This document shows, one piece after another, positions 7,447-54,493 of a stretch of 64,000 nucleotides of DNA (within the stretch, counting starts at the first letter, position 1; each line of letters starts with the position of its first letter). The stretch lies in sequence record MN508624.2; one strand, given 5' to 3'. Below the pieces are notes generated by a model that ran no database searches, had not been told where the DNA came from, and saw nothing but the letters and a program-made list of their open reading frames with translations. Source of the DNA: Enterobacter phage EC-F2. The position numbers were made by a program, and so were the translations under genes.

Positions 7447-10400
7447 ATGGTAGCTAAATCATTCCGCGCCACAAGTGGCCTTGATGCTGCTGGCGAAAAA
7501 GTTATCAACGTTGGTAAAGCATCGCGCTCCGTGTTGAGTGACGGCGTGAACGTTGACTTTTTTAACGAATTTAACACCGTACAACAGTACGATTCAACCC
7601 GTGGCTATGCTGCTTTCATGGCTATCATTTACGCGCGTCGTATCTGGTACGCTCGCGCTGATATCGCATCACCTGCGGGGGCTTTCGATGAAACAAAGTG
7701 GATCGCAACACGTAATGATCCAAAATGGGTATATAACAACGTAACCAATCCAGACGGCTTGCCTGTTGAGTCTGGTACGTACATGATGTGTGATGGGCGA
7801 TTCTCTGAACTATCGTACATTCTGCCAGATTCCCCGATTGAAGGTGATATTGTAACCTTTAAAGACGGTGGCGGTCTTGCTGGTGTCAACAGCATTCTGG
7901 TACGTTCAAACACTCGTCAGATCCGTCTGCGTGATATTCAGTCAAGCTCTTACCGACTGACTCACCCATATATGACCGTAGCGTTTATCTTCAACGGTAA
8001 CTTATGGCGTGTAGCGGAAATGCGTGATAACCGCGATTCTCAGTTTGTAAACGCAACTGGTTTGCTTCCTTTCCAAATGCAAGCGGGTATGGTAACATTC
8101 CGTAACAGCGGTACAGGTAAAATCACCCTCCAGTTGCCGAAGTATGCAAACGATGGTGATTCAATCACAACCTACGATCTGGATCGTCTTGCTTCGGTGA
8201 ACGTTGCGACTCTGCAAGTTTATCCCGGTAGCGGACACACGATCAGTTATGACGGTATCAATAACGTACCCTCTGTGACTTCACAGCGTTCCGGTTATGG
8301 TATTTTCATGTTCGATCAGGCTAATAACCGTTGGGTTGTTTATGACGGTGATCAGCGCGTTCGTCTGCGTCGTATCAGTGATGACCTGAACATGTTGCCG
8401 AACGATTACGTGTTCATCACTCCGATTGCTGTCAACCCACCAACTGTACGTAATGTAACGCTGACTCTTCCGCAAGATGTTGCAGAAGGTGATCGCGTAT
8501 ATATCAGTATGTACATGATGGGGAAAACGCAGAACTGTACAATCAAAGTTAAAGATGGTTCCGGTGAAAAGATCCGCACCAATAAAAACATGATGCAGTT
8601 CCCACAGCGTAAGGATTATCCGCCTGATGACTGGTTCAGTGTTGACTCTCTGACTTTCAACGCCGATACTGACTATCTTCCATATATGGAACTGTCATAT
8701 CTGAAAGCTACGAAAGAATGGGTAGTTGCACAGTATCGCCCGATCATTGAACGTGTCGATCCAACAAACCGTTCTCGTCTGGGTGTTATCGCACTGGCTA
8801 CACAGGCAGAAGTAAACAAAAACTGGGAAGATTTGCCGTCTGATGAACTGGCAGTAACCCCGCGCACATTGGCGAATAAAACCGCTACTGAAACGCGTCG
8901 TGGTATCGCTCGCCTGGCAACAACTGCGGAAGTTAACCAGAACACGACAGCAACCTTCCTTGATGACGTGATCGTGACGCCTAAAAAGCTGAACGAACGA
9001 TCAGCAACAGAAGATCGTCGTGGGGTGCTGGAAATCGCAACTCAGGCAGAAACAAACGCTGGTACTGATGACACTACCGCAATCACGCCTAAAAAGCTCG
9101 ACACACGCCGCGCGACCGAAACCCTAGCAGGTATCGGAAAACTCGTTACAACGGGGGCTACGACAGCGGAGGGGGCTTTACGTGGGGATGCTGGTACGAA
9201 CGTCTACAACTTCAATAACGGTGTTGATCTGATCACTCCGAAATCATTGAACGAGAAGACGGCGACCGAAAAGTCAAAAGGTCTGGTTGTTCTGGCGACT
9301 GAAAACGAAGTGGTGACTGGTGCTGCTGCGGGATCTGCTTCAATGCCGATCGTAGTAACTCCTGAAATGTTGCATCGCAAAACGTCTACTGAAACGCGTA
9401 TCGGATTGATTGAGATCGCAACCCAGACAGAAACGAACACGGGAACCGATGATCTTCGTGCGGTAACGCCTAAGAAGCTGAACGATCGCAAGGCTACTGA
9501 ATCGCTTGATGGTATTATTGCCCTCGCTACTACTGCGGAAGTTGCAGCAGGCACAGTGACGAATAAGGCAGTGGTTCCGGTTAAGCTGAAAGAGTTCTTC
9601 GACGTTACGAGTCATGTTGCGGTTGCAACTGCTGATGGTTTAACTCAGTCCGGTACTATCTGGACAACGATTAACCTGGGGATTGCGTCTGCTACTGAAA
9701 CACAGCGCGGTACTCTGCGCGTAGCGACTCAGGGTGAAACTGATGCGGGTACTCTGGATAACGTGGTTATCACGCCTAAGAAGCTGCAAGCGAAGAAAGC
9801 GACTGATACCGCCGAAGGTATTATTCGTTGTGCGACTAACGCGGAAGCGGGTGCTGGTACTGCTACTAACCTGGCAATTACTCCGGCTACCATGCAGTTC
9901 TTGAACGGTACTGATCCGGCATGGGGTGCAACGACAACTCGACGCGGTGCGGTGTTCATCACTACCAAATCGAATACGTTCATCGGTGATAATCTGGTTG
10001 GTTCTACTCAGCCCGTAGATAGCTATCTGGAAGATTTCTACGCTGTATCGCCTCGCGGTCTGAACTTTGCTCTACAAAACTTCTTACCGTTGAACGCAAC
10101 AGCACAGAACAGCCTGAAACTGGGCGGTGTGGTAGCTGCAAGCTGGATGCGTCGTGATGCAGATCAAACCGTAACGGGCAACAACACGTTCAACGGTACA
10201 AGCAACTTCGTTGGTAACGTAACCACTAACGGGACTCTGACGGCTAACGCTGCGGTAACTGTTAACAACACCGTAACCACGAACAATAACATTAACCAGT
10301 CTGCGAAAGCAAACACGGTTTATGCTAATACTGTTTTGAGTACAGCAACCGCTGGAACTAAAAACTTGCTTCGTACTTTCCGTGGTGGCGTGACGGATAC

Positions 10401-11106
10401 TACATGGCATGAAACTGTTCAGGGAACTACGTATCGCCTGGCAACTGGCACAACCGACACGACCGACGTTCTGACTGTTGGTGATGTATCTAACGGCACA
10501 ATGGCGTACTCCGGTACTACTCTGCGTCTGAATGGTAAAGCACTGGCTAACACGAACGCAACAGGTGATGTGACCATTGCAAGTGATGCAAGTCCTACGG
10601 TACAATTACGAACCGCTGCAACTAACGGTTGGAACGGTGTAACAATCAGTAATGATAACGGTGTGACTACTGCGACCGTGATCAACACCCGAAACTTTAC
10701 CCAGCATCTTGACAGTACCTATGTCAATACAGCGGGCGATACTATGACTGGTGCGCTGTCAGTTAGCGTAAACGGTACGGGTGGACGCTTTACCAGTGTG
10801 AGCGGTACGGCACATGTTCAGGCGGGTGATTTCTCTGGGAACGTCCAGAAAATGCGCTTAACTGGCATTGACGATAAGGTATTGACTGAGTTCAACATCA
10901 ATATCACCGATTACAACAAAGCGATGATCAACGGAAACCTGATTTATCATGCGGGTCGTCGTCCGACTCCTGCGGAAATCGGTGCTGTTGCGCTGGTGGG
11001 TTCAACCGTTGATACTCTGGTTGTTCGCGACTACATCAAAATCGGTAACGTGAAAATCTTCGCAAATCCAGTCACTAAGGCTTGTGAATTTGTGTGGGAG
11101 GAATAA
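7447..11106 (+). CDS. 34: long tail fibre proximal subunit
   Basis: 1219 aa; N-terminus MVAKSFRATSGLDAAGEKVINV...NTVQQYDSTRGY matches T4 gp34 N-terminus; internal ~30-aa phage tail fibre repeats; C-terminal IKIGNVKIFANPVTKACEFVWEE matches T4 gp34 C-terminus. Confidence 0.9.
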   Translation: MVAKSFRATSGLDAAGEKVINVGKASRSVLSDGVNVDFFNEFNTVQQYDSTRGYAAFMAIIYARRIWYARADIASPAGAFDETKWIATRNDPKWVYNNVTNPDGLPVESGTYMMCDGRFSELSYILPDSPIEGDIVTFKDGGGLAGVNSILVRSNTRQIRLRDIQSSSYRLTHPYMTVAFIFNGNLWRVAEMRDNRDSQFVNATGLLPFQMQAGMVTFRNSGTGKITLQLPKYANDGDSITTYDLDRLASVNVATLQVYPGSGHTISYDGINNVPSVTSQRSGYGIFMFDQANNRWVVYDGDQRVRLRRISDDLNMLPNDYVFITPIAVNPPTVRNVTLTLPQDVAEGDRVYISMYMMGKTQNCTIKVKDGSGEKIRTNKNMMQFPQRKDYPPDDWFSVDSLTFNADTDYLPYMELSYLKATKEWVVAQYRPIIERVDPTNRSRLGVIALATQAEVNKNWEDLPSDELAVTPRTLANKTATETRRGIARLATTAEVNQNTTATFLDDVIVTPKKLNERSATEDRRGVLEIATQAETNAGTDDTTAITPKKLDTRRATETLAGIGKLVTTGATTAEGALRGDAGTNVYNFNNGVDLITPKSLNEKTATEKSKGLVVLATENEVVTGAAAGSASMPIVVTPEMLHRKTSTETRIGLIEIATQTETNTGTDDLRAVTPKKLNDRKATESLDGIIALATTAEVAAGTVTNKAVVPVKLKEFFDVTSHVAVATADGLTQSGTIWTTINLGIASATETQRGTLRVATQGETDAGTLDNVVITPKKLQAKKATDTAEGIIRCATNAEAGAGTATNLAITPATMQFLNGTDPAWGATTTRRGAVFITTKSNTFIGDNLVGSTQPVDSYLEDFYAVSPRGLNFALQNFLPLNATAQNSLKLGGVVAASWMRRDADQTVTGNNTFNGTSNFVGNVTTNGTLTANAAVTVNNTVTTNNNINQSAKANTVYANTVLSTATAGTKNLLRTFRGGVTDTTWHETVQGTTYRLATGTTDTTDVLTVGDVSNGTMAYSGTTLRLNGKALANTNATGDVTIASDASPTVQLRTAATNGWNGVTISNDNGVTTATVINTRNFTQHLDSTYVNTAGDTMTGALSVSVNGTGGRFTSVSGTAHVQAGDFSGNVQKMRLTGIDDKVLTEFNINITDYNKAMINGNLIYHAGRRPTPAEIGAVALVGSTVDTLVVRDYIKIGNVKIFANPVTKACEFVWEE
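8755..9910 (+). repeat. about ten tandem phage-tail-fibre repeats (TPKKLn..AT(E/D)..G...LAT.AE) inside gp34
   Basis: Recurrent ITPKKLNERSATEDRRGVLEIATQAETNAG-type units in translation. Confidence 0.7.
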
Positions 11107-11111
11107 TTTAA

Positions 11112-12704
11112 ATGGCGAATAACGAATTTATGGCGTTATTCGGCCCTGATAGTTTCACGGCGAGTGTGTTTTCAGAAGCAAACGCCGTGAAATATCGCCT
11201 TGTTGTCCGTGGAACGAATAACGATTCTGCGGTCAACTCGGTTGAGGTATCTATTAACGGGGCTGATATTATTAACAGACGAACACAAGCTGCTCGCGGA
11301 ATTAACCTGGCTGTCATTGATGGAACAACTTTAGCATTATTGGATTACAAAGCATTCGATATGTATGGTGATCCTGCTACGAACGGGAATGCGATTAAAG
11401 ACTACCTGAATTCACTTCCAGCGAACAGAATTGTGTGTTTTTATACTTTCGATGCTATCAAAAGTGACGATAACTTTTTAGCAACAATGAGGAAAATAGG
11501 TTCTGTTGCGTGGCCTGAAACTCGGTTCTTTAATATCCCGATCACCACAACCAACTATTCTCACCGTTCATCCTATTCAGCTATCTATTCATCCACGATG
11601 AAAAAGATCTGTATGGAAAACTTTGTCGGTGGTTCTGGTAGTCTGAAAGACAATACAACGAGTTTTGTTGAAGTTGTGTTTGATGAATTCAGTGATATCG
11701 GGGTAACGGGTATTCCAGAAAGAATGGTTGATGATGTTCAGACATACCAGAACAGCGGGGATCTTTACGGCTTCCATACTTACGGGCTATGGTCAATTGG
11801 TAATGATGTTTATCTGGGTGATATCTTCAAATTCACTGGGGATTTGTATTGTTCTAAAGAACTCCGTGATGCTGGGGGAGAAGTTCACCTGTATATGTGG
11901 ACAGAAAACGGTAGCGGACAATGGATCACGTCATCCATTCTTCGAACAACCGGACTAGCCCCCGATCAGTGGCATTCGTTATCAGGATATTTCACCATCC
12001 CGACCGATCCGCTAAATGCTCGAATGGGTTCACAGGTATATCATTACCCGTCAACTGTTAAAGTCGGGCTGGCGCAATGTCGTAACGTCCAGATCACAAA
12101 AGTACCGCGTGAAGAAATAAACCGCAATGGTGCTGCTGTTGGTGTGAATGGTGTTAGAATGCAGACACTTTCCGAAGTGGATTCAAGCGGAAATGAAAAC
12201 CCGATTGATAAATTGCTTTCTCTGCCTGTTTCGCCTACTGGTGTTGTCAGTGATAAGAAAATCATTTCACATAACTTTGCTGAACTTGATTATATTGTTT
12301 CTGATCCGGTTGAATACACTTCAACCAGTACAACAGAATATCAGTTTAAAGAATGGACTGCTACCCAGCAAGCGGCGGTAACGAAAGCATCACTAAGCAG
12401 TTATGGCTTAAAAGCTGGTGATACGATCCGTATGCAATGCCAAATGAAACGCGATGCAAACGCAATCGCCAACAATAAAGGTGCATATATCGTAATGCAG
12501 TTCTGGGACGCGAATAATACGTATATTTCAGGGATCAACATGCGTGATGTTGGTACGATACCTAACGTATATTCATTCTATAAAAACGAAGGTGTTGTTC
12601 CTGCTGGGGCGGTTACTTTCGATTTCGGTTTATATCGTTATCCAAACAGCACAAACATCGGTACGGTATCCGCTAAAGACGTTAAACTGTCAATCGTGAG
12701 ATAA
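11112..12704 (+). CDS. tail fibre hinge connector, gp35-like (putative)
   Basis: 530 aa, position between gp34 and gp36-like gene, RBS GGAGG; assignment by synteny only. Confidence 0.5.
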   Translation: MANNEFMALFGPDSFTASVFSEANAVKYRLVVRGTNNDSAVNSVEVSINGADIINRRTQAARGINLAVIDGTTLALLDYKAFDMYGDPATNGNAIKDYLNSLPANRIVCFYTFDAIKSDDNFLATMRKIGSVAWPETRFFNIPITTTNYSHRSSYSAIYSSTMKKICMENFVGGSGSLKDNTTSFVEVVFDEFSDIGVTGIPERMVDDVQTYQNSGDLYGFHTYGLWSIGNDVYLGDIFKFTGDLYCSKELRDAGGEVHLYMWTENGSGQWITSSILRTTGLAPDQWHSLSGYFTIPTDPLNARMGSQVYHYPSTVKVGLAQCRNVQITKVPREEINRNGAAVGVNGVRMQTLSEVDSSGNENPIDKLLSLPVSPTGVVSDKKIISHNFAELDYIVSDPVEYTSTSTTEYQFKEWTATQQAAVTKASLSSYGLKAGDTIRMQCQMKRDANAIANNKGAYIVMQFWDANNTYISGINMRDVGTIPNVYSFYKNEGVVPAGAVTFDFGLYRYPNSTNIGTVSAKDVKLSIVR

Positions 12705-17222: not shown

Positions 17223-18035
17223 ATGGCTGTTGTAGGCGTACCTGGTTGGATCGGGTCTTCTGCTGTAAGCGAAACGGGTGAAAGATGGATGTCCGCTGCT
17301 GCGGGACAACTTCGATTATCTGCTGCTGGTTATATGTCACGATTTGCGGGGATCTCCCGCGAACAATCAATAACGATTTCCGCAAGCAACGCATACGCAT
17401 GGTCAACCCTGGTCAATCAGATTAAATCATTGGGTGTGTCCGGTGGTGCATTCAAAATTACTGTTGTCGGGAACATCGTTTCAAGCAGTGCTGGTGCTCC
17501 GTGCCTTAACTTCACATCTGATCTTGCGGGTGTTGATTATATTGAACTGATCATTAACTCTGGTGTAGGTGTTATGGGTCGTGGTGGTGCGGGTGGTGGT
17601 GATAACACAGGTGGCGCGTATTCATCCGGCGAAAATGGTGGTGTCGGTATTACTAACGCGATCGGAAACAAACTGCGAATAACGAACAATGGTTATATTG
17701 CGGGTGGTGGTGGTGGTGGTGGCCTGGTAAACATGCCAACTTCTACATCACGACGTGTACAGGTATCCGGTGGTGGTGGTCGACCTTTCGGTGCTGCTGG
17801 TACAGGTGGTTATGACGGTAACGGTACAGCGGCAACAATTTCCGCTCCTGGTTCCGGTGGTTCTTCGAGTCTATCACAAGCTGGTGCGGGTGGTAACTTA
17901 GGTGCGGCTGGTCAATATCCACCTAAAGCCGATGGTCGTCTGGAAGCTCAAGCGGCGGGTGCTGCGGGTGCTGCGGTTAACGGTAACGCGCCAACGTGGA
18001 GAACTGTAGGGACAATTTACGGTTCGAGAGTTTAA
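17223..18035 (+). CDS. 38: T2-type receptor-recognising adhesin gp38 with glycine-rich motifs
   Basis: 270 aa; MAVVGVPGWIGSSAVSETGERWMSAAAG matches T2 gp38 MAVVGIPGWIGTSAVAETGQRWM; polyglycine GRMs (GGGGGGG) separating variable segments. Confidence 0.85.
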   Translation: MAVVGVPGWIGSSAVSETGERWMSAAAGQLRLSAAGYMSRFAGISREQSITISASNAYAWSTLVNQIKSLGVSGGAFKITVVGNIVSSSAGAPCLNFTSDLAGVDYIELIINSGVGVMGRGGAGGGDNTGGAYSSGENGGVGITNAIGNKLRITNNGYIAGGGGGGGLVNMPTSTSRRVQVSGGGGRPFGAAGTGGYDGNGTAATISAPGSGGSSSLSQAGAGGNLGAAGQYPPKADGRLEAQAAGAAGAAVNGNAPTWRTVGTIYGSRV

Positions 18036-18088
18036 GTAAATTCCTAAATATAATCGGGGGTCGGCATCCCCGAACTTGAGGATTAAAC

Positions 18089-18733
18089 ATGGCGCTATTA
18101 CAAGATAAATTGGCGGTGCTTGAACGGGTAATATCGTTCATCATGGCGGTCAAAACATGGAAACAGTTATTCATTAAATTGGTTCTTATCGTCACTATTT
18201 TCATTATGTTCGTAACATGGTACAAGTGGGATGACTTATTTTCAGTCTGGAAAACATCTTCAAGCGTTATAGACGTGCCGACGATGGAGATTGAAAAGGC
18301 AAAAAAGTTTGAATCCGCATCCATCGAACAGTTAAACATAGTGCATTTAACTACGGGTGCGGATTTTTCGGCAATCTTTGGGTTCAGACCTAAGAATGTC
18401 AATTATTTTGTTGATATAATTGCGTATGAAGGGAAGTTACCGCAACAGATTAACCCGAAAAATCTGGGTGGCTATCCTATAGACAAGACATCGGAAGAGT
18501 ATAATAGACATATAAACGGGCTGTACTATATCTCAGATATTGCAAGCCCGTATCTTCCAACAAAAGACCTTGTTCCGGTAGCATATACCTTTAGTTGTCC
18601 TTATTTCAATCTAGAAAACTACTATTCTGGATCGATTCTAATGGAATGGTATATACAGAAGCCCGAAGTCACCGATACGAAGTTGATGATCGTGTGCAAT
18701 CAGGCCGCTAGAATTTTAGGCAGGGTTCGATGA
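18089..18733 (+). CDS. t: holin
   Basis: 214 aa, single N-terminal TM; ...FESASIEQLNIVHLTTGADFSAIFGFRPKNVNYFVDIIAYEGKLP...CPYFNLENYYSGSILMEWY...ICNQAARILGRV matches T4 gp t almost motif for motif. Confidence 0.9.
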   Translation: MALLQDKLAVLERVISFIMAVKTWKQLFIKLVLIVTIFIMFVTWYKWDDLFSVWKTSSSVIDVPTMEIEKAKKFESASIEQLNIVHLTTGADFSAIFGFRPKNVNYFVDIIAYEGKLPQQINPKNLGGYPIDKTSEEYNRHINGLYYISDIASPYLPTKDLVPVAYTFSCPYFNLENYYSGSILMEWYIQKPEVTDTKLMIVCNQAARILGRVR

Positions 18734-18991
18734 TAATTTCAGTTTCAAACCGCTTAAAGCCCGATTGATGAAATCTTTTACTTTCGTCATCTGGTTTTTA
18801 TCGTATATGTCCCATACGCGCATGAGTTCGTAAGGTGTCGGAACATATTCATCGTTCCAGTATCCAACATTACCTATCGTAATGCGCCGGAAACCAGCCT
18901 CTACGCTGTGATATACAAAGAACCCAGCCTTACCCACAGGGGCGACTTTAAAACCGCGTGTAGCGGCTTTCATGGCTTCGTCGTGTGTCAT
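18716..18991 (-). CDS. hypothetical protein (91 aa), syntenic position of asiA
   Basis: ORF convergent with t; no similarity to AsiA recognised. Confidence 0.4.
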   Translation of the reverse strand: MTHDEAMKAATRGFKVAPVGKAGFFVYHSVEAGFRRITIGNVGYWNDEYVPTPYELMRVWDIYDKNQMTKVKDFINRALSGLKLKLSSNPA

Positions 18992-19290
18992 GATAGAATC
19001 ACTTCGCCTCTGTATTGATTGTGATAGATGTATGGACGAACACCCAGTGGGTGATTATCTATGACTAAGATCAGGTCAAGTTCGTCGTGGTTATCATCTT
19101 CTGCAACTATATCCCAGTCGGTCGCTTTCTGTTCTTCAACACTGGCAATGAATACCTTGTTAATCTCAACCTTGCGGTGAGAACGTCGAATGATCGTATC
19201 CCCTTCACGGAACACGATCATATCTGGGTTAATTGGACGGTACGCGGTTTTACCCGCGCACACTTCGTTTAACATTTCTTCGTAAGTCAT
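18988..19290 (-). CDS. hypothetical protein (100 aa), syntenic position of arn
   Basis: Acidic protein, 4-nt overlaps both neighbours. Confidence 0.4.
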   Translation of the reverse strand: MTYEEMLNEVCAGKTAYRPINPDMIVFREGDTIIRRSHRKVEINKVFIASVEEQKATDWDIVAEDDNHDELDLILVIDNHPLGVRPYIYHNQYRGEVILS

Positions 19291-52718: not shown

Positions 52719-53654
52719 TCAAAAGTCACTTAGTTTTTCATACATACGGGTAAGTTTGCATTCCATGAAGTATTTCTCCATTTTTGCTTTGTTCCCGATT
52801 TTTGGAGCATTGTACGCTTCTTCGATTGCCGTTGCAACATCTTTCGGAATAAAATCAAAGTCGCGAAGTTCTTCGTTTTCTCTGTAGCGGATCGCCCACT
52901 CTTCGGGCATACCCACGGTCGGATCGTCCGCTTCCAGCCAGGCTTCGAGTTCAGCAGCCCTGATTTGTGGGGCGCGTTCTCCTTCAACCTTCGTAACAAT
53001 ATAGTCATTTCGCATTTTAATGCAAGCGATACTATCTTTTTTATCGCCCTTGATGATCTTCATGCGCAAATCGTTACGAGGTGAACCATATTTCGGTGTA
53101 ACCCATTTCTTTTGGGTTGGCGACCACTGACGCACACCCTGATATTTTTGAAGGGCTGCAAAGTCACCATCAGCAGAAACGATCAGGACACGTTTACCTT
53201 CGGATACCGCTTTACGCGTCACCACACCGATCACGTCATCGGCTTCTGCGAAGTCAACACGGATACCTTTGTACGGTAAATTAGCACGGATTTCATCGTA
53301 TGTCGGGTGAAGGAAACCATTCAGGCGATCCCAGTCCCAATCCGATGCTTCTTGTTCCATTTTTCGTTTCTTTTTGTAGTACCAGGCTTTACTTCTGCGC
53401 CAATACTTGTTATCATCAAAGGCTAGAACAATTTCAGGGTACTCGCCTTTGAATTTAACCACATTGTGACGAATGGTGTCAAGCACTATGTGACGAACAA
53501 TTTGTTGGTTGATGTCATTCTGGTCTTTCGGCTTGAAGTTGTTCATCAACGTTGCTACCGAAAGGTTTGAAATATCTATACACATCACATCAACAGGATC
53601 ATCGTCATTGCTCATTAAGCTGTTCAGGTTGAACATACTTGCAAATGAAGACAT
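52719..53654 (-). CDS. rnh: RNase H (5'-3' exonuclease, FEN family)
   Basis: Start at ATG 53654 (RBS gagg; the ORF-track start 53699 lies upstream of the promoter -10); WDWD, SADGDF, WSPTQKKWV, KGDKKD motifs as in T4 RNase H. Confidence 0.85.
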   Translation of the reverse strand: MSSFASMFNLNSLMSNDDDPVDVMCIDISNLSVATLMNNFKPKDQNDINQQIVRHIVLDTIRHNVVKFKGEYPEIVLAFDDNKYWRRSKAWYYKKKRKMEQEASDWDWDRLNGFLHPTYDEIRANLPYKGIRVDFAEADDVIGVVTRKAVSEGKRVLIVSADGDFAALQKYQGVRQWSPTQKKWVTPKYGSPRNDLRMKIIKGDKKDSIACIKMRNDYIVTKVEGERAPQIRAAELEAWLEADDPTVGMPEEWAIRYRENEELRDFDFIPKDVATAIEEAYNAPKIGNKAKMEKYFMECKLTRMYEKLSDF

Positions 53655-53684
53655 TTCAATACCTCGTTGTTGTTGAATGAAACT

Positions 53685-53713
53685 GATTATAGTGATCACT
53701 TTTTCAAAGTCAA
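53685..53713 (-). promoter_or_regulatory. strong sigma70-type promoter TTGACT-17-TATAAT driving rnh
   Basis: minus-strand ttgact(53713-53708) 17 nt tataat(53690-53685). Confidence 0.6.
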
Positions 53714-53742
53714 TAGATCATTTCAAAAATCTGAGCGAAGCG

Positions 53743-53872
53743 AAGGACACGAACGTAGTGAGTGTCTATGTACTGAATGTACGTTTTAATATTTTTATAT
53801 TTTATATATAGAGAAAACAGTACATTTCCGTATACTTTTTAACCAGTTTTAACTATCCGTTTCGCTTCGCTC
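53743..53872. repeat. nested inverted repeats (GAGCGAAGCGAA/TTCGCTTCGCTC outer, ATGTACTG/CAGTACAT inner) around an AT-rich core
   Basis: Read directly from sequence in the rnh-55 divergent intergenic region. Confidence 0.6.
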
Positions 53873-53923
53873 ACGGAAGCGCTTCGCGCTGATTTTATTA
53901 AATAATATAGATTGGAAGTAGGT

Positions 53924-53952
53924 TTGAAACACCTGATTCAATCGGCTATAAT
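53924..53952 (+). promoter_or_regulatory. sigma70-type promoter TTGAAA-17-TATAAT driving gene 55
   Basis: ttgaaacacctgattcaatcggctataat. Confidence 0.6.
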
Positions 53953-53977
53953 GAATGTATTCAATTTGGAGAATATA

Positions 53978-54493
53978 ATGACTACAAAGATTTATGCAGA
54001 TAATGATAAGCTGTATCCAGTTATGTGTAAGTGGAAACAGCAAATCCGTGAAACTGGTGATCGTAAGATGCCGGATGAACTCGGTATTGCGATTATGAAT
54101 ATTGCTCACGGTTTGGCACGTCGATACAACTTCAACCGTTATTCCGAAGACTGGAAAATGGATATGATCGATGATGGAATTTCAGCAACGATTTCCGGCC
54201 TTCATAACTTTGACGAAACCAAATATACAAACGTCTACGGTTACATCAACAAGGCTTGCTGGCAAGCGTTTGTAACTCGTATTCTCTACGAGAAGAAAGA
54301 GAACGCGAAGAAATACAAATACTTCCTGGAACATGTCTATGACAGCGATGATACTGATATGACCACGATAGCCGATGAAACTTTCATTCAGGATATCCAT
54401 GACAAACTTAATCAGTATGAAGAGTCCGCGAAAAAACCAAAAGATAAAATCGAGGTTGTGGACGAATCGCCAACATTGGAAATGTTTCTATGA
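53978..54493 (+). CDS. 55: late-promoter sigma factor
   Basis: Start at ATG 53978 (RBS ggag); GIAIMNIAHGLARRYNFNRYSEDWKMDMIDDGISATISGLHNFDETKYTNVYGYINKACWQAFVTRI collinear with T4 gp55. Confidence 0.85.
   Translation: MTTKIYADNDKLYPVMCKWKQQIRETGDRKMPDELGIAIMNIAHGLARRYNFNRYSEDWKMDMIDDGISATISGLHNFDETKYTNVYGYINKACWQAFVTRILYEKKENAKKYKYFLEHVYDSDDTDMTTIADETFIQDIHDKLNQYEESAKKPKDKIEVVDESPTLEMFL

Follow-up and report, generated by a model that had tools for sequence, protein, structure and literature searches.

The replication origins of bacteriophage T4 have allowed no generalization in 40 years, and the rules that govern them are listed as open questions in the review of the field (PMC3016281). T4 origins share no motif; oriF and oriG each comprise a MotA promoter and a downstream unwinding element (PMC3016281). 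Further, oriE, oriF and oriG are positioned at points of transcription divergence and skew shift (Kreuzer and Brister, PMC3016281). We found no mapped origin of a T4 relative in the literature, T4 being the only one of these phages with mapped origins. Note that RB43 possesses no motA and no middle promoters (Nolan et al., PMC1524935). Here we analyzed a stretch of 64,000 nucleotides (nt) of Enterobacter phage EC-F2 (MN508624.2; the whole stretch is called the window), a Pseudotevenvirus of the RB43/leB group. The spacer between rnh and gene 55 in the window holds an element (53732-53890) that is one of three copies of a conserved ~160-bp unit with four hairpins and an AT-rich centre. We found no description of this hairpin element in the literature. 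Our preferred reading of the sequence, held with a little less than even confidence, is that the element may be one of three structure-forming replication-initiation sites of RB43-type T4-like phages.

Window positions 53400-54300 were 100% identical to Enterobacter phage EC-W1 (MN508621.2), and 60 other records matched at 80-100% in BLAST searches. We refer to the EC-W1 genome (178.6 kb), which was assembled by joining the window to three retrieved pieces and was then scanned for the ~160-bp unit (window position = EC-W1 record position minus 32683). The genome contained the following copies and none beyond these three.

EC-W1 86415-86570: copy between rnh and gene 55 (the window copy)
EC-W1 156290-156445: copy between gene 3 (minus strand) and an open reading frame (ORF) of 261 aa (plus strand)
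EC-W1 12374-12536: copy between gene 24 and uvsY

Approximately 50 nt of the centre, including TATATTTTATATATAGAGAAAA, were identical in the three EC-W1 copies. All copies had the same orientation relative to gene 55, uvsY or the ORF200w-like gene, with the plus-strand gene downstream, and were located 30-60 nt upstream of the sigma70-type promoter of that gene. The uvsY copy formed a near-complete palindrome of ~160 nt (69% self-complementary). A leftward near-consensus promoter (TTGACC-17-TATAAT, EC-W1 12340-12375) abuts the left arm of this copy. Its transcript would be antisense to gene 24, a late gene, at the 3' end, and no gene is available for it to serve; the uvsY promoter is on the right of the element.

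All three sites were occupied in RB43, RB16, Lw1, CfP1 and two Phynn-like metagenome lineages. One or two sites were inspected in Phynn, JC221, Morganella phage Mm5 and Pectobacterium phage POP12, and these too held a copy. The orthologous positions were occupied even in phages that are ~70% identical in the rnh/55 spacer. On the test of conservation in related phages that was proposed by a first-pass annotation of the window, the sites were conserved; the long-range pairing of the arms, however, was not. A match in the 61-kb phage KKP_3664, considered as horizontal transfer to an unrelated phage, was rejected as such: the record is a partial Pseudotevenvirus genome and the match is its own 24/uvsY copy.

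The arms of the element consist of four 11-mers of the form GA-X-CG-N-A-G-X'-GA, two on the plus strand to the left of the centre and two on the minus strand to the right.

53731-53745, plus strand: mini-hairpin A; 11-mer GAGCGAAGCGA at 53733-53743, GA-[G C (GAA) G C]-GA, stem extended by flanking T:A and C:G
53746-53766, plus strand: mini-hairpin B; GACAC-GAACGTAGTGA-GTGTC, 11-mer at 53751-53761, X:X' = A:T, GTA loop, 5-bp outer stem
53857-53876, minus strand: mini-hairpin B'; 11-mer TCGCTTCGCTC at 53862-53872, minus-strand reading GAGCGAAGCGA, flanks CCGT/ACGG
53878-53890, minus strand: mini-hairpin A'; AGCGCGAAGCGCT, 11-mer at 53888-53878

The two direct 11-mers of each arm are 17-19 bp apart. 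The strand rule (plus on the left, minus on the right) held almost without exceptions. Against ~1.4 occurrences expected by chance in the whole genome (178.6 kb), the full 11-mer motif was counted 13 times, and the three elements account for 10 of these.

Covariation of the hairpins was examined in an alignment of 21 copies, which represent five or more lineages and all three sites. X and X' were paired in every copy with letters at these positions and changed among G:C, A:T and C:G. In hairpin A, X:X' was formed in 20 of 20 copies with letters and C:G in 21 of 21, and the adjacent flanking pair alternated between T:A and C:G. The X:X' pairs of hairpin B were AU (15 copies), CG (5) and GC (1), with none unpaired; its outer pairs (columns 22/37 and 23/36) were kept, with G:U and one U:A change, and hairpin B was also predicted in single-sequence folds. 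Similarly, X:X' was GC (14) or AU (5) in B', with none unpaired, and GC (17), AU (2) or CG (1) in A', the flanks of which covaried between gc/gc and ac/gt. The flanks of the 11-mers overall were G.A/A.G or Watson-Crick (ac/gt, gc/gc, cg/cg, tc/ga). In RB16, the hairpin types on the right are exchanged, so that A-A' and B-B' pairing is destroyed and the four local hairpins are kept. Because the RB16 exchange preserves the local hairpins, we concluded that these are the selected feature, not a long stem or a duplex palindrome. Accordingly, one long hairpin or cruciform was rejected as the conserved feature; in the rnh/55 and gp3 copies, moreover, A pairs with B' (an A-type 11-mer) only and B has no complementary partner on the right.

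The 11-mers match, in sequence, the GNA-triloop mini-hairpins of DNA. The heptamer X-C-G-N-A-G-X' within them corresponds to the GCGNAGC mini-hairpin described by Hirao and colleagues. This mini-hairpin is composed of two Watson-Crick pairs and a sheared G.A pair; its stability is extraordinary in DNA and far lower in RNA, and single-stranded DNA-binding protein (SSB) binds it poorly (PMC13037366). Hairpins of this type occur in the G4 primase site, in RSF1010 ssiA (CCGAAGG) and in the N4 hairpin promoters (PMC13037366).

Around and between these hairpins, the spacer (324 bp; rnh ATG at 53654 on the minus strand, gene 55 ATG at 53979 on the plus strand) contains the following features.

53686-53713, minus strand: sigma70-type promoter of rnh, TTGACT-16-TATAAT, 11/12 consensus, pointing left, away from the element
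53732-53744 and 53861-53873: outer inverted repeat, 13 bp, perfect, TGAGCGAAGCGAA and TTCGCTTCGCTCA
53768-53775 and 53818-53825: inner inverted repeat, 8 bp, ATGTACTG and CAGTACAT
53768-53783, plus strand: left arm(s) of the central stem, ATGTACTG (53768-53775) and a second copy AATGTACG (53776-53783)
53784-53817, no strand: AT-rich centre, holding TATATTTTATATATAGAGAAAA (53796-53817), the most conserved block of the family
53818-53825, plus strand: right arm of the central stem, CAGTACAT
53826-53857, plus strand: asymmetric conserved block, TTCCGTATACTTTTTAACCA..., ~30 nt, without a partner on the left
53924-53952, plus strand: sigma70-type promoter of gene 55, TTGAAA-17-TATAAT, 11/12 consensus, pointing right, away from the element

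The outer repeat, whose right arm is B', was the only perfect inverted repeat of at least 13 bp with a gap of at most 200 nt in the window; one such repeat appeared in 3 of 20 shuffled windows. The only other perfect 12-bp inverted repeat within the same gap lies at 10085-10096 and 10187-10198. A further pair of arms, AAAATCTGAGCGAAGCG (53726-53742) and CGCTTCGCGCTGATTTT (53880-53896), is 88% complementary; neither this pair nor the repetition of the unit in the genome had been listed previously. The first-pass annotation had reported the inner repeat and the 42 bp between its arms (53776-53817; 88% A+T) correctly. Its outer repeat also exists and was placed correctly on the right; the repeat is 13 bp rather than 12, and the left arm had been placed 10 positions too high. 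Likewise, both of the promoters that it named are present, with a spacing of 16, not 17, in that of rnh. The distances from arm to promoter, which it had described as similar, are in fact unequal: 19 nt on the left (to the rnh -35) and 51 nt on the right (to the gene 55 -35). The rnh promoter is conserved in RB43, CfP1, Phynn and JC221, and the gene 55 promoter is also kept in relatives. The minimum of G+C content over 60 bp (0.18) was at 53780-53839.

By itself, the inner 8-bp repeat is not significant in AT-rich DNA (9 of 1000 shuffles), and the central stems taken singly were just modestly better than shuffles. The inner repeat is convincing because of its covariation in relatives, not because of significance in a single sequence. 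A stem was found in every lineage with a differing sequence: ATGTACTG/CAGTACAT in the window, AACTACA/TGTAGTT in the RB43 type, ATGTCCACTTT/AAAGTGGACAT in Phynn and TGTACCCT/AGGGTACA in Mm5 (left-arm forms GTACTG, CTACA, GTCCAC and GTACCC). The evidence for this predicted stem is its recurrence at the same place with compensatory changes. It encloses an AT-rich loop of 27-42 nt. Where a relative has a T:G wobble, the left arm supplies the T in each case, so that such pairs are tolerated on the plus strand only. TATATTTTATATATAGAGAAAA was nearly invariant across lineages and is itself a small palindrome (TATAT-TTT-ATATA), which was the local palindrome picked by RNAalifold. The asymmetric block is present on the right side only and thus gives the element a polarity toward the downstream plus-strand gene. 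Both strands folded far better than shuffles as DNA or RNA (z = -4.2 to -5.5).

We next consider the placement of the copies in the genome. The GC-skew analysis proposed by the first-pass annotation gave two minima of cumulative skew in the whole genome, at ~86 kb and ~156 kb, and both coincided with element copies (rnh/55 and gp3/ORF, respectively). The maxima were at ~51 kb (window ~18,000-19,000) and ~118 kb (outside the window), where the four large co-oriented gene blocks converge; they are the counterparts of the two minima that bear the element. In the T4 record, oriF is at the 5' end of uvsY, oriG is inside gene 34, 2.2 kb from rnh (it had been cited as lying near rnh/34), and oriE is inside gene 5 of the 1-3-2-4/53-5 block. 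The three sites of the element match the neighbourhoods of T4 oriF, oriG and oriE. In the proposed comparison with the mapped T4 origins, the 76-nt T4 25/uvsY spacer (oriF region) contained no hairpin motifs.

The element was further sought in IMG/VR with a pattern of 25 specified bases (two plus-strand 11-mers, a gap and one minus-strand 11-mer), and the flanking genes were identified by PHROG scans. The pattern matched 26 stretches in contigs of very different base composition. Those with T4-like neighbours included the following.

L159, L162 and L109 (35-39% G+C): element between a gp3-like gene and uvsY, followed by uvsW
L157 and L160 (28-30% G+C): element between uvsW and the 55-47 cluster
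L097 (49% G+C): element between gp2 and gp4

The centres in these divergent contigs were lineage-specific, being AT-rich or composed of direct repeats: in L109 there are two 28-nt direct repeats, and the centre of L157 is AT-rich and contains repeats. POP12 possesses seven AT-rich repeats (~25 nt, ~21-bp period) with spacings of 21, 21, 21, 10, 10 and 20 nt, a helical phasing; they are located just upstream of the hairpin module (L020, 1100-1230) in a 695-nt spacer before uvsY. Iteron-like additions in relatives are thus 2 x 28-nt or 7 x ~21-bp direct repeats. In other T4-like phages, the element was not found upstream of uvsY. In the Tevenvirinae TG1, KP179 and CC31, the 40-75 nt between 25 and uvsY leave no room for it; in Marzo and cyanophage ACG-2014f, gp3 and uvsY abut; and no hairpin 11-mers were found upstream of uvsY in Slopekvirus Miro and Vibrio phage PG216. 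The 24/uvsY junction of Klebsiella phage Miro (L283, 650-880), which belongs to a sister genus, has an extremely AT-rich spacer of ~240 nt after an annotated terminator, with five or six GATC-containing repeats (TTAGATC / TATAGATCA).

The 11-mer also occurs elsewhere. A bulk metagenome scan yielded 120 loci, of which 113 lacked any T4-like marker gene; tandem GAGCGAAGCGAGC repeats, unrelated to the element, accounted for those that we inspected, so that the 11-mer cannot by itself identify the element. Tandem GAGCGAAGCGAGCNGT arrays with nearby inverted copies were seen in L168, L171, L177 and ~110 other loci (marine samples Ga0302114, Ga0302116 and Ga0115006; ~50-55% G+C), and ORF fragments of L168 and L171 resemble dynein heavy-chain exons. 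These arrays appear to be an abundant repeat of marine eukaryotes built on the same mini-hairpin 11-mer. Two near-identical viral contigs of IMG/VR with 69-70% G+C (L144 and L161) matched the hairpin pattern without recognizable T4-like neighbours.

These results suggest that the rnh/55 element family is, so far, the strongest candidate for an origin in RB43-type phages. The region had been taken by the first-pass annotation for a candidate origin, and this remains the best reading, given the three copies, the conservation across genera, the skew minima and the neighbourhoods of T4 origins; the function is what we infer from them. The initiation-site reading is favoured because the strand rule forms a dyad, the stability of the motif is specific to DNA, the motif is associated with priming sites, the copies are placed at T4-origin neighbourhoods and skew minima, and iteron-like repeats were added in relatives. 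An origin of the T4 R-loop type is not indicated, because MotA and the layout of a promoter followed by an unwinding element are absent. Thus, the more specific proposal of an unwinding element with primer promoters was not borne out: the promoters point away from the core, no inward promoter is conserved, and neither MotA nor, in T4 oriF, the hairpin motifs are found.

Initiation might proceed in five steps, all of them inferred, melting and extrusion as well as the loading of proteins and initiation itself. The two near-consensus promoters at the edges, transcribing divergently and early, would introduce negative supercoiling into the spacer, and the 88% A+T centre would then melt. On each strand, the central stem of 8-12 bp and the two very stable GNA-triloop mini-hairpins 5' of the centre would form, which would hold the region open and provide a fixed, poorly SSB-coated landmark on both strands. 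There, gp59, gp41 and gp61 (helicase loader, helicase and primase) or another hairpin-binding protein would assemble. Bidirectional forks would then leave the site, co-oriented with the two large divergent gene blocks.

Several points weigh against the initiation-site reading. No candidate initiator protein or dedicated primase was identified: there was none among the genes adjoining the window copy, and the 261-aa ORF beside the gp3-site copy (L006, EC-W1, 9921-10706; between genes 3 and 2 and conserved in the group) has no Pfam domain and belongs to phrog_7322, which has no assigned function. Origins usually evolve fast, and the near-invariant core also fits a signal at the protein or RNA level. 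A role in gene regulation would account equally well for the constant polarity and for the location immediately before an early promoter. The genes on either side of the element run in the same direction in marine T4-like contigs; divergent transcription is thus not a universal requirement. The 24/uvsY copy is not at a skew minimum. Further, GC skew in phages follows the direction of transcription, and the skew minima and the placement at divergence points are not independent evidence, because the minima are the two major transcription-divergence points. Finally, T4 does not possess the element, so that the argument from synteny is one of position alone.

Among the alternatives, the one that survives best, which we nevertheless consider unlikely, is an upstream cis-regulatory module for gene 55, uvsY and the ORF200w-like gene, in which a phage or host protein would bind the four 11-mers and the core and time the promoters, for example as a substitute for MotA. 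The same polarity of every copy and the sigma70-type promoter 30-60 nt downstream are consistent with such a module, as is the conservation of the 11-mer sequence rather than the fold alone. Further, the asymmetric block (53826-53857) has no structural explanation, and RB43-type phages do not possess MotA (PMC1524935); in the T4 record, by contrast, uvsY carries a mot box label. However, covariation of X:X', of the flanks and of the central stem is not needed for recognition of a duplex, and the strict strand rule of the GNA loops points to single strands. The symmetric operator suggested by the first-pass annotation is disfavoured for the same reason: its arms are four local hairpins with covariation within each 11-mer. 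Moreover, just three promoters would be served, and in L097 and L157 the element does not adjoin a gene start.

It is less probable that the element is a programmed hairpin or cruciform target of gp46/47 (SbcCD-like) and endonuclease VII, the ends of which would seed recombination-dependent replication, making it a hotspot rather than a classical origin. The copies are beside recombination genes (uvsY, with uvsW at one site; 47 and 46 are ~1.1 kb downstream of the element in the window), T4 recombination hotspots coincide with oriF and oriG, and the uvsY copy is, as described above, a near-complete palindrome. However, the long-range complementarity between the arms is not conserved (the exchange in RB16; A-B' pairing only in the rnh/55 and gp3 copies), a cruciform with a loop of 27-42 nt is a poor nuclease substrate, and the conserved sequence of the AT-rich core would be left without explanation.

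We also doubt that the element acts as a structured RNA of the plus strand, that is, a small RNA, a 5' leader or a processing or terminator hairpin in read-through transcripts. RNA folding was strong (z = -5.3 for the plus strand and -4.2 for the minus strand), the T:G wobbles of the central stem and the G:U of hairpin B are tolerated on the plus strand only, and transcripts of late gene 24 must read into the 24/uvsY copy. Read on the plus strand, A' of the rnh/55 copies is a 5-bp hairpin followed by a T-run, a terminator-like match with a compensatory change in RB43. However, this tail is missing at the other two sites, there is no conserved upstream plus-strand promoter at the two divergent sites, and the GNA loops of the right half are on the minus strand, so that one RNA cannot explain the dyad. 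Further, RNA mini-hairpins are much less stable than those of DNA (PMC13037366), and no Rfam match was obtained. In searches for known RNAs, the best Rfam 15 score in the region was 17.9 bits against a threshold of 70, nothing in the window reached a gathering score, and ARAGORN detected no tRNA or tmRNA. An intrinsic terminator was rejected as well: the T-run follows A' in the rnh/55 copies only, and no promoter reading into the element was found at rnh/55.

A selfish miniature inverted-repeat transposable element or a functionless chance repeat is very improbable: terminal inverted repeats, several copies and the same 11-mer in unrelated marine eukaryotic tandem repeats would suit it, but it is excluded as a selfish element because different genera, including phages with only ~70% identity in the spacer, have it at the same three orthologous positions, and there are no target-site duplications at the borders, no extra copies and a covariation that shows purifying selection on structure.

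The remaining features of the locus concern its genes. The gene order is 32-59-33-dsbA-rnh on one side of the spacer and 55-47-46 on the other. GenBank records of the spacer have no annotation or merely small hypothetical ORFs, ribosome-binding sites or a promoter. Small ORFs overlap the element in the window at 53667-53789 (plus strand, 40 aa), 53677-53811 (plus, 44 aa) and 53849-54109 (minus, 86 aa). These are probably not genes, because relatives differ by indels that are single-base or not multiples of three, and we judged them spurious. The sole promoter-like site inside the element, a sigma70-type TAGAGA-16-TATACT (9/12 match), was rejected because its -10 is not conserved. A late promoter, TATAAATA, on the minus strand of the core was likewise rejected; it is present in the gp3 and uvsY copies of EC-W1 and in Lw1 but not in the window copy, RB43, RB16 or the Phynn-like copies.

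A sharply defined element in three copies, in phages that grow on Escherichia coli (RB43, RB16 and Lw1), provides a direct handle on origins. The initiation-site reading predicts three copy-number peaks at known coordinates, and the hairpins allow single-base tests through X and X'. If the reading is true, it would show how a T4-like phage without MotA starts replication, would give the GCGNAGC mini-hairpin a biological role in a double-stranded DNA phage, and would mean that positions of origins were conserved while their mechanisms were replaced. If it proves to have a different role, a conserved, structured and previously undescribed element nonetheless lies at the main divergence points of the genome. 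We put forward tentatively, as a possibility, a wider proposal: that there was an ancestral, sequence-defined class of T4-like origin, consisting of a dyad of GNA-triloop hairpins around an easily melted centre and using an extruded single-strand structure rather than a primer transcript. Phages ranging from the enterobacterial RB43 type to AT-rich aquatic T4-like phages would have retained this class at the uvsY, rnh/55 and 3-2-4 junctions, whereas in the T4 lineage MotA-dependent R-loop origins would have replaced it at the same places.

Finally, we compared the element with known systems. The promoter-stem-loop (PeSL) cassettes of pseudo-T-even phages are also a repeated non-coding motif near near-consensus early promoters, consisting of one small stem-loop and a promoter; they are numerous, clustered in hyperplastic regions and mediate gene shuffling (PMC2839356, PMC4122927). 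The element is not such a cassette: it is ~160 bp long, is present in three copies at fixed junctions of core genes, and has four specific hairpins and a conserved core. The promoters of the N4 virion RNA polymerase resemble it in that there are three per genome, each with a stem of 5-7 bp and a 3-nt GGA or GAA loop that is extruded from supercoiled DNA (PMC13037366). However, they need the N4 virion RNA polymerase, and each consists of one hairpin, whereas in the element four are arranged as a dyad about the AT-rich centre. To our knowledge, T4-like phages do not encode an enzyme of this type, and none was present by name in the annotated T4-like gene set of EC-W1, in which no search was aimed at one.

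In comparison with iteron-type origins (lambda ori, T4 oriE and theta plasmids), the element has two direct 11-mers per arm and an AT-rich centre, but its 11-mers show the behaviour of hairpins rather than of duplex sites. The oriL and oriS of herpes simplex virus have a palindrome with an AT-rich centre and inverted recognition boxes between divergent promoters, in three copies per genome. The virus and its proteins are unrelated and UL9 binds the boxes as duplexes; the likeness is thus an analogy of layout only. T4 oriF and oriG are similar to the element in their positions (upstream of uvsY, and beside rnh at a divergence point), in an AT-rich segment of the unwinding type and in the presence of several origins per genome. 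They differ in that a MotA-dependent middle promoter precedes an unwinding element, which is transcribed, and in that they share no sequence with each other, whereas the three copies of the element share a ~160-bp unit, no promoter faces its AT-rich core, the phage group has no MotA, and T4 oriF has no hairpin motifs. On reading the sequence, we found no Mot box inside the element.

The element also resembles single-strand initiation (ssi) sites. Each element has four C-GNA-G hairpins, on opposite strands on either side of the centre, and ssiA and ssiB of RSF1010 are likewise on opposite strands, as are the hairpin pairs of the element. The ssi and G4 signals differ in their reader, which is a dedicated primase (RepB') or, on single-stranded phage DNA, DnaG; RSF1010 additionally has 20-bp RepC iterons. 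We know of no requirement of T4-type primase for hairpins. Like those of the element, the hairpins of RSF1010 ssiA/ssiB and of G4-type signals are built on the C-GNA-G mini-hairpin; the RSF1010 and G4 hairpins mark the start sites of primase (PMC13037366). Further, CCGAAGG of ssiA is the heptamer of hairpin B in the Phynn-like copies. Taken together, the element is origin-like and ssi-like, and there is a substantial chance that it represents the first sequence-defined class of origin across T4-like phages.

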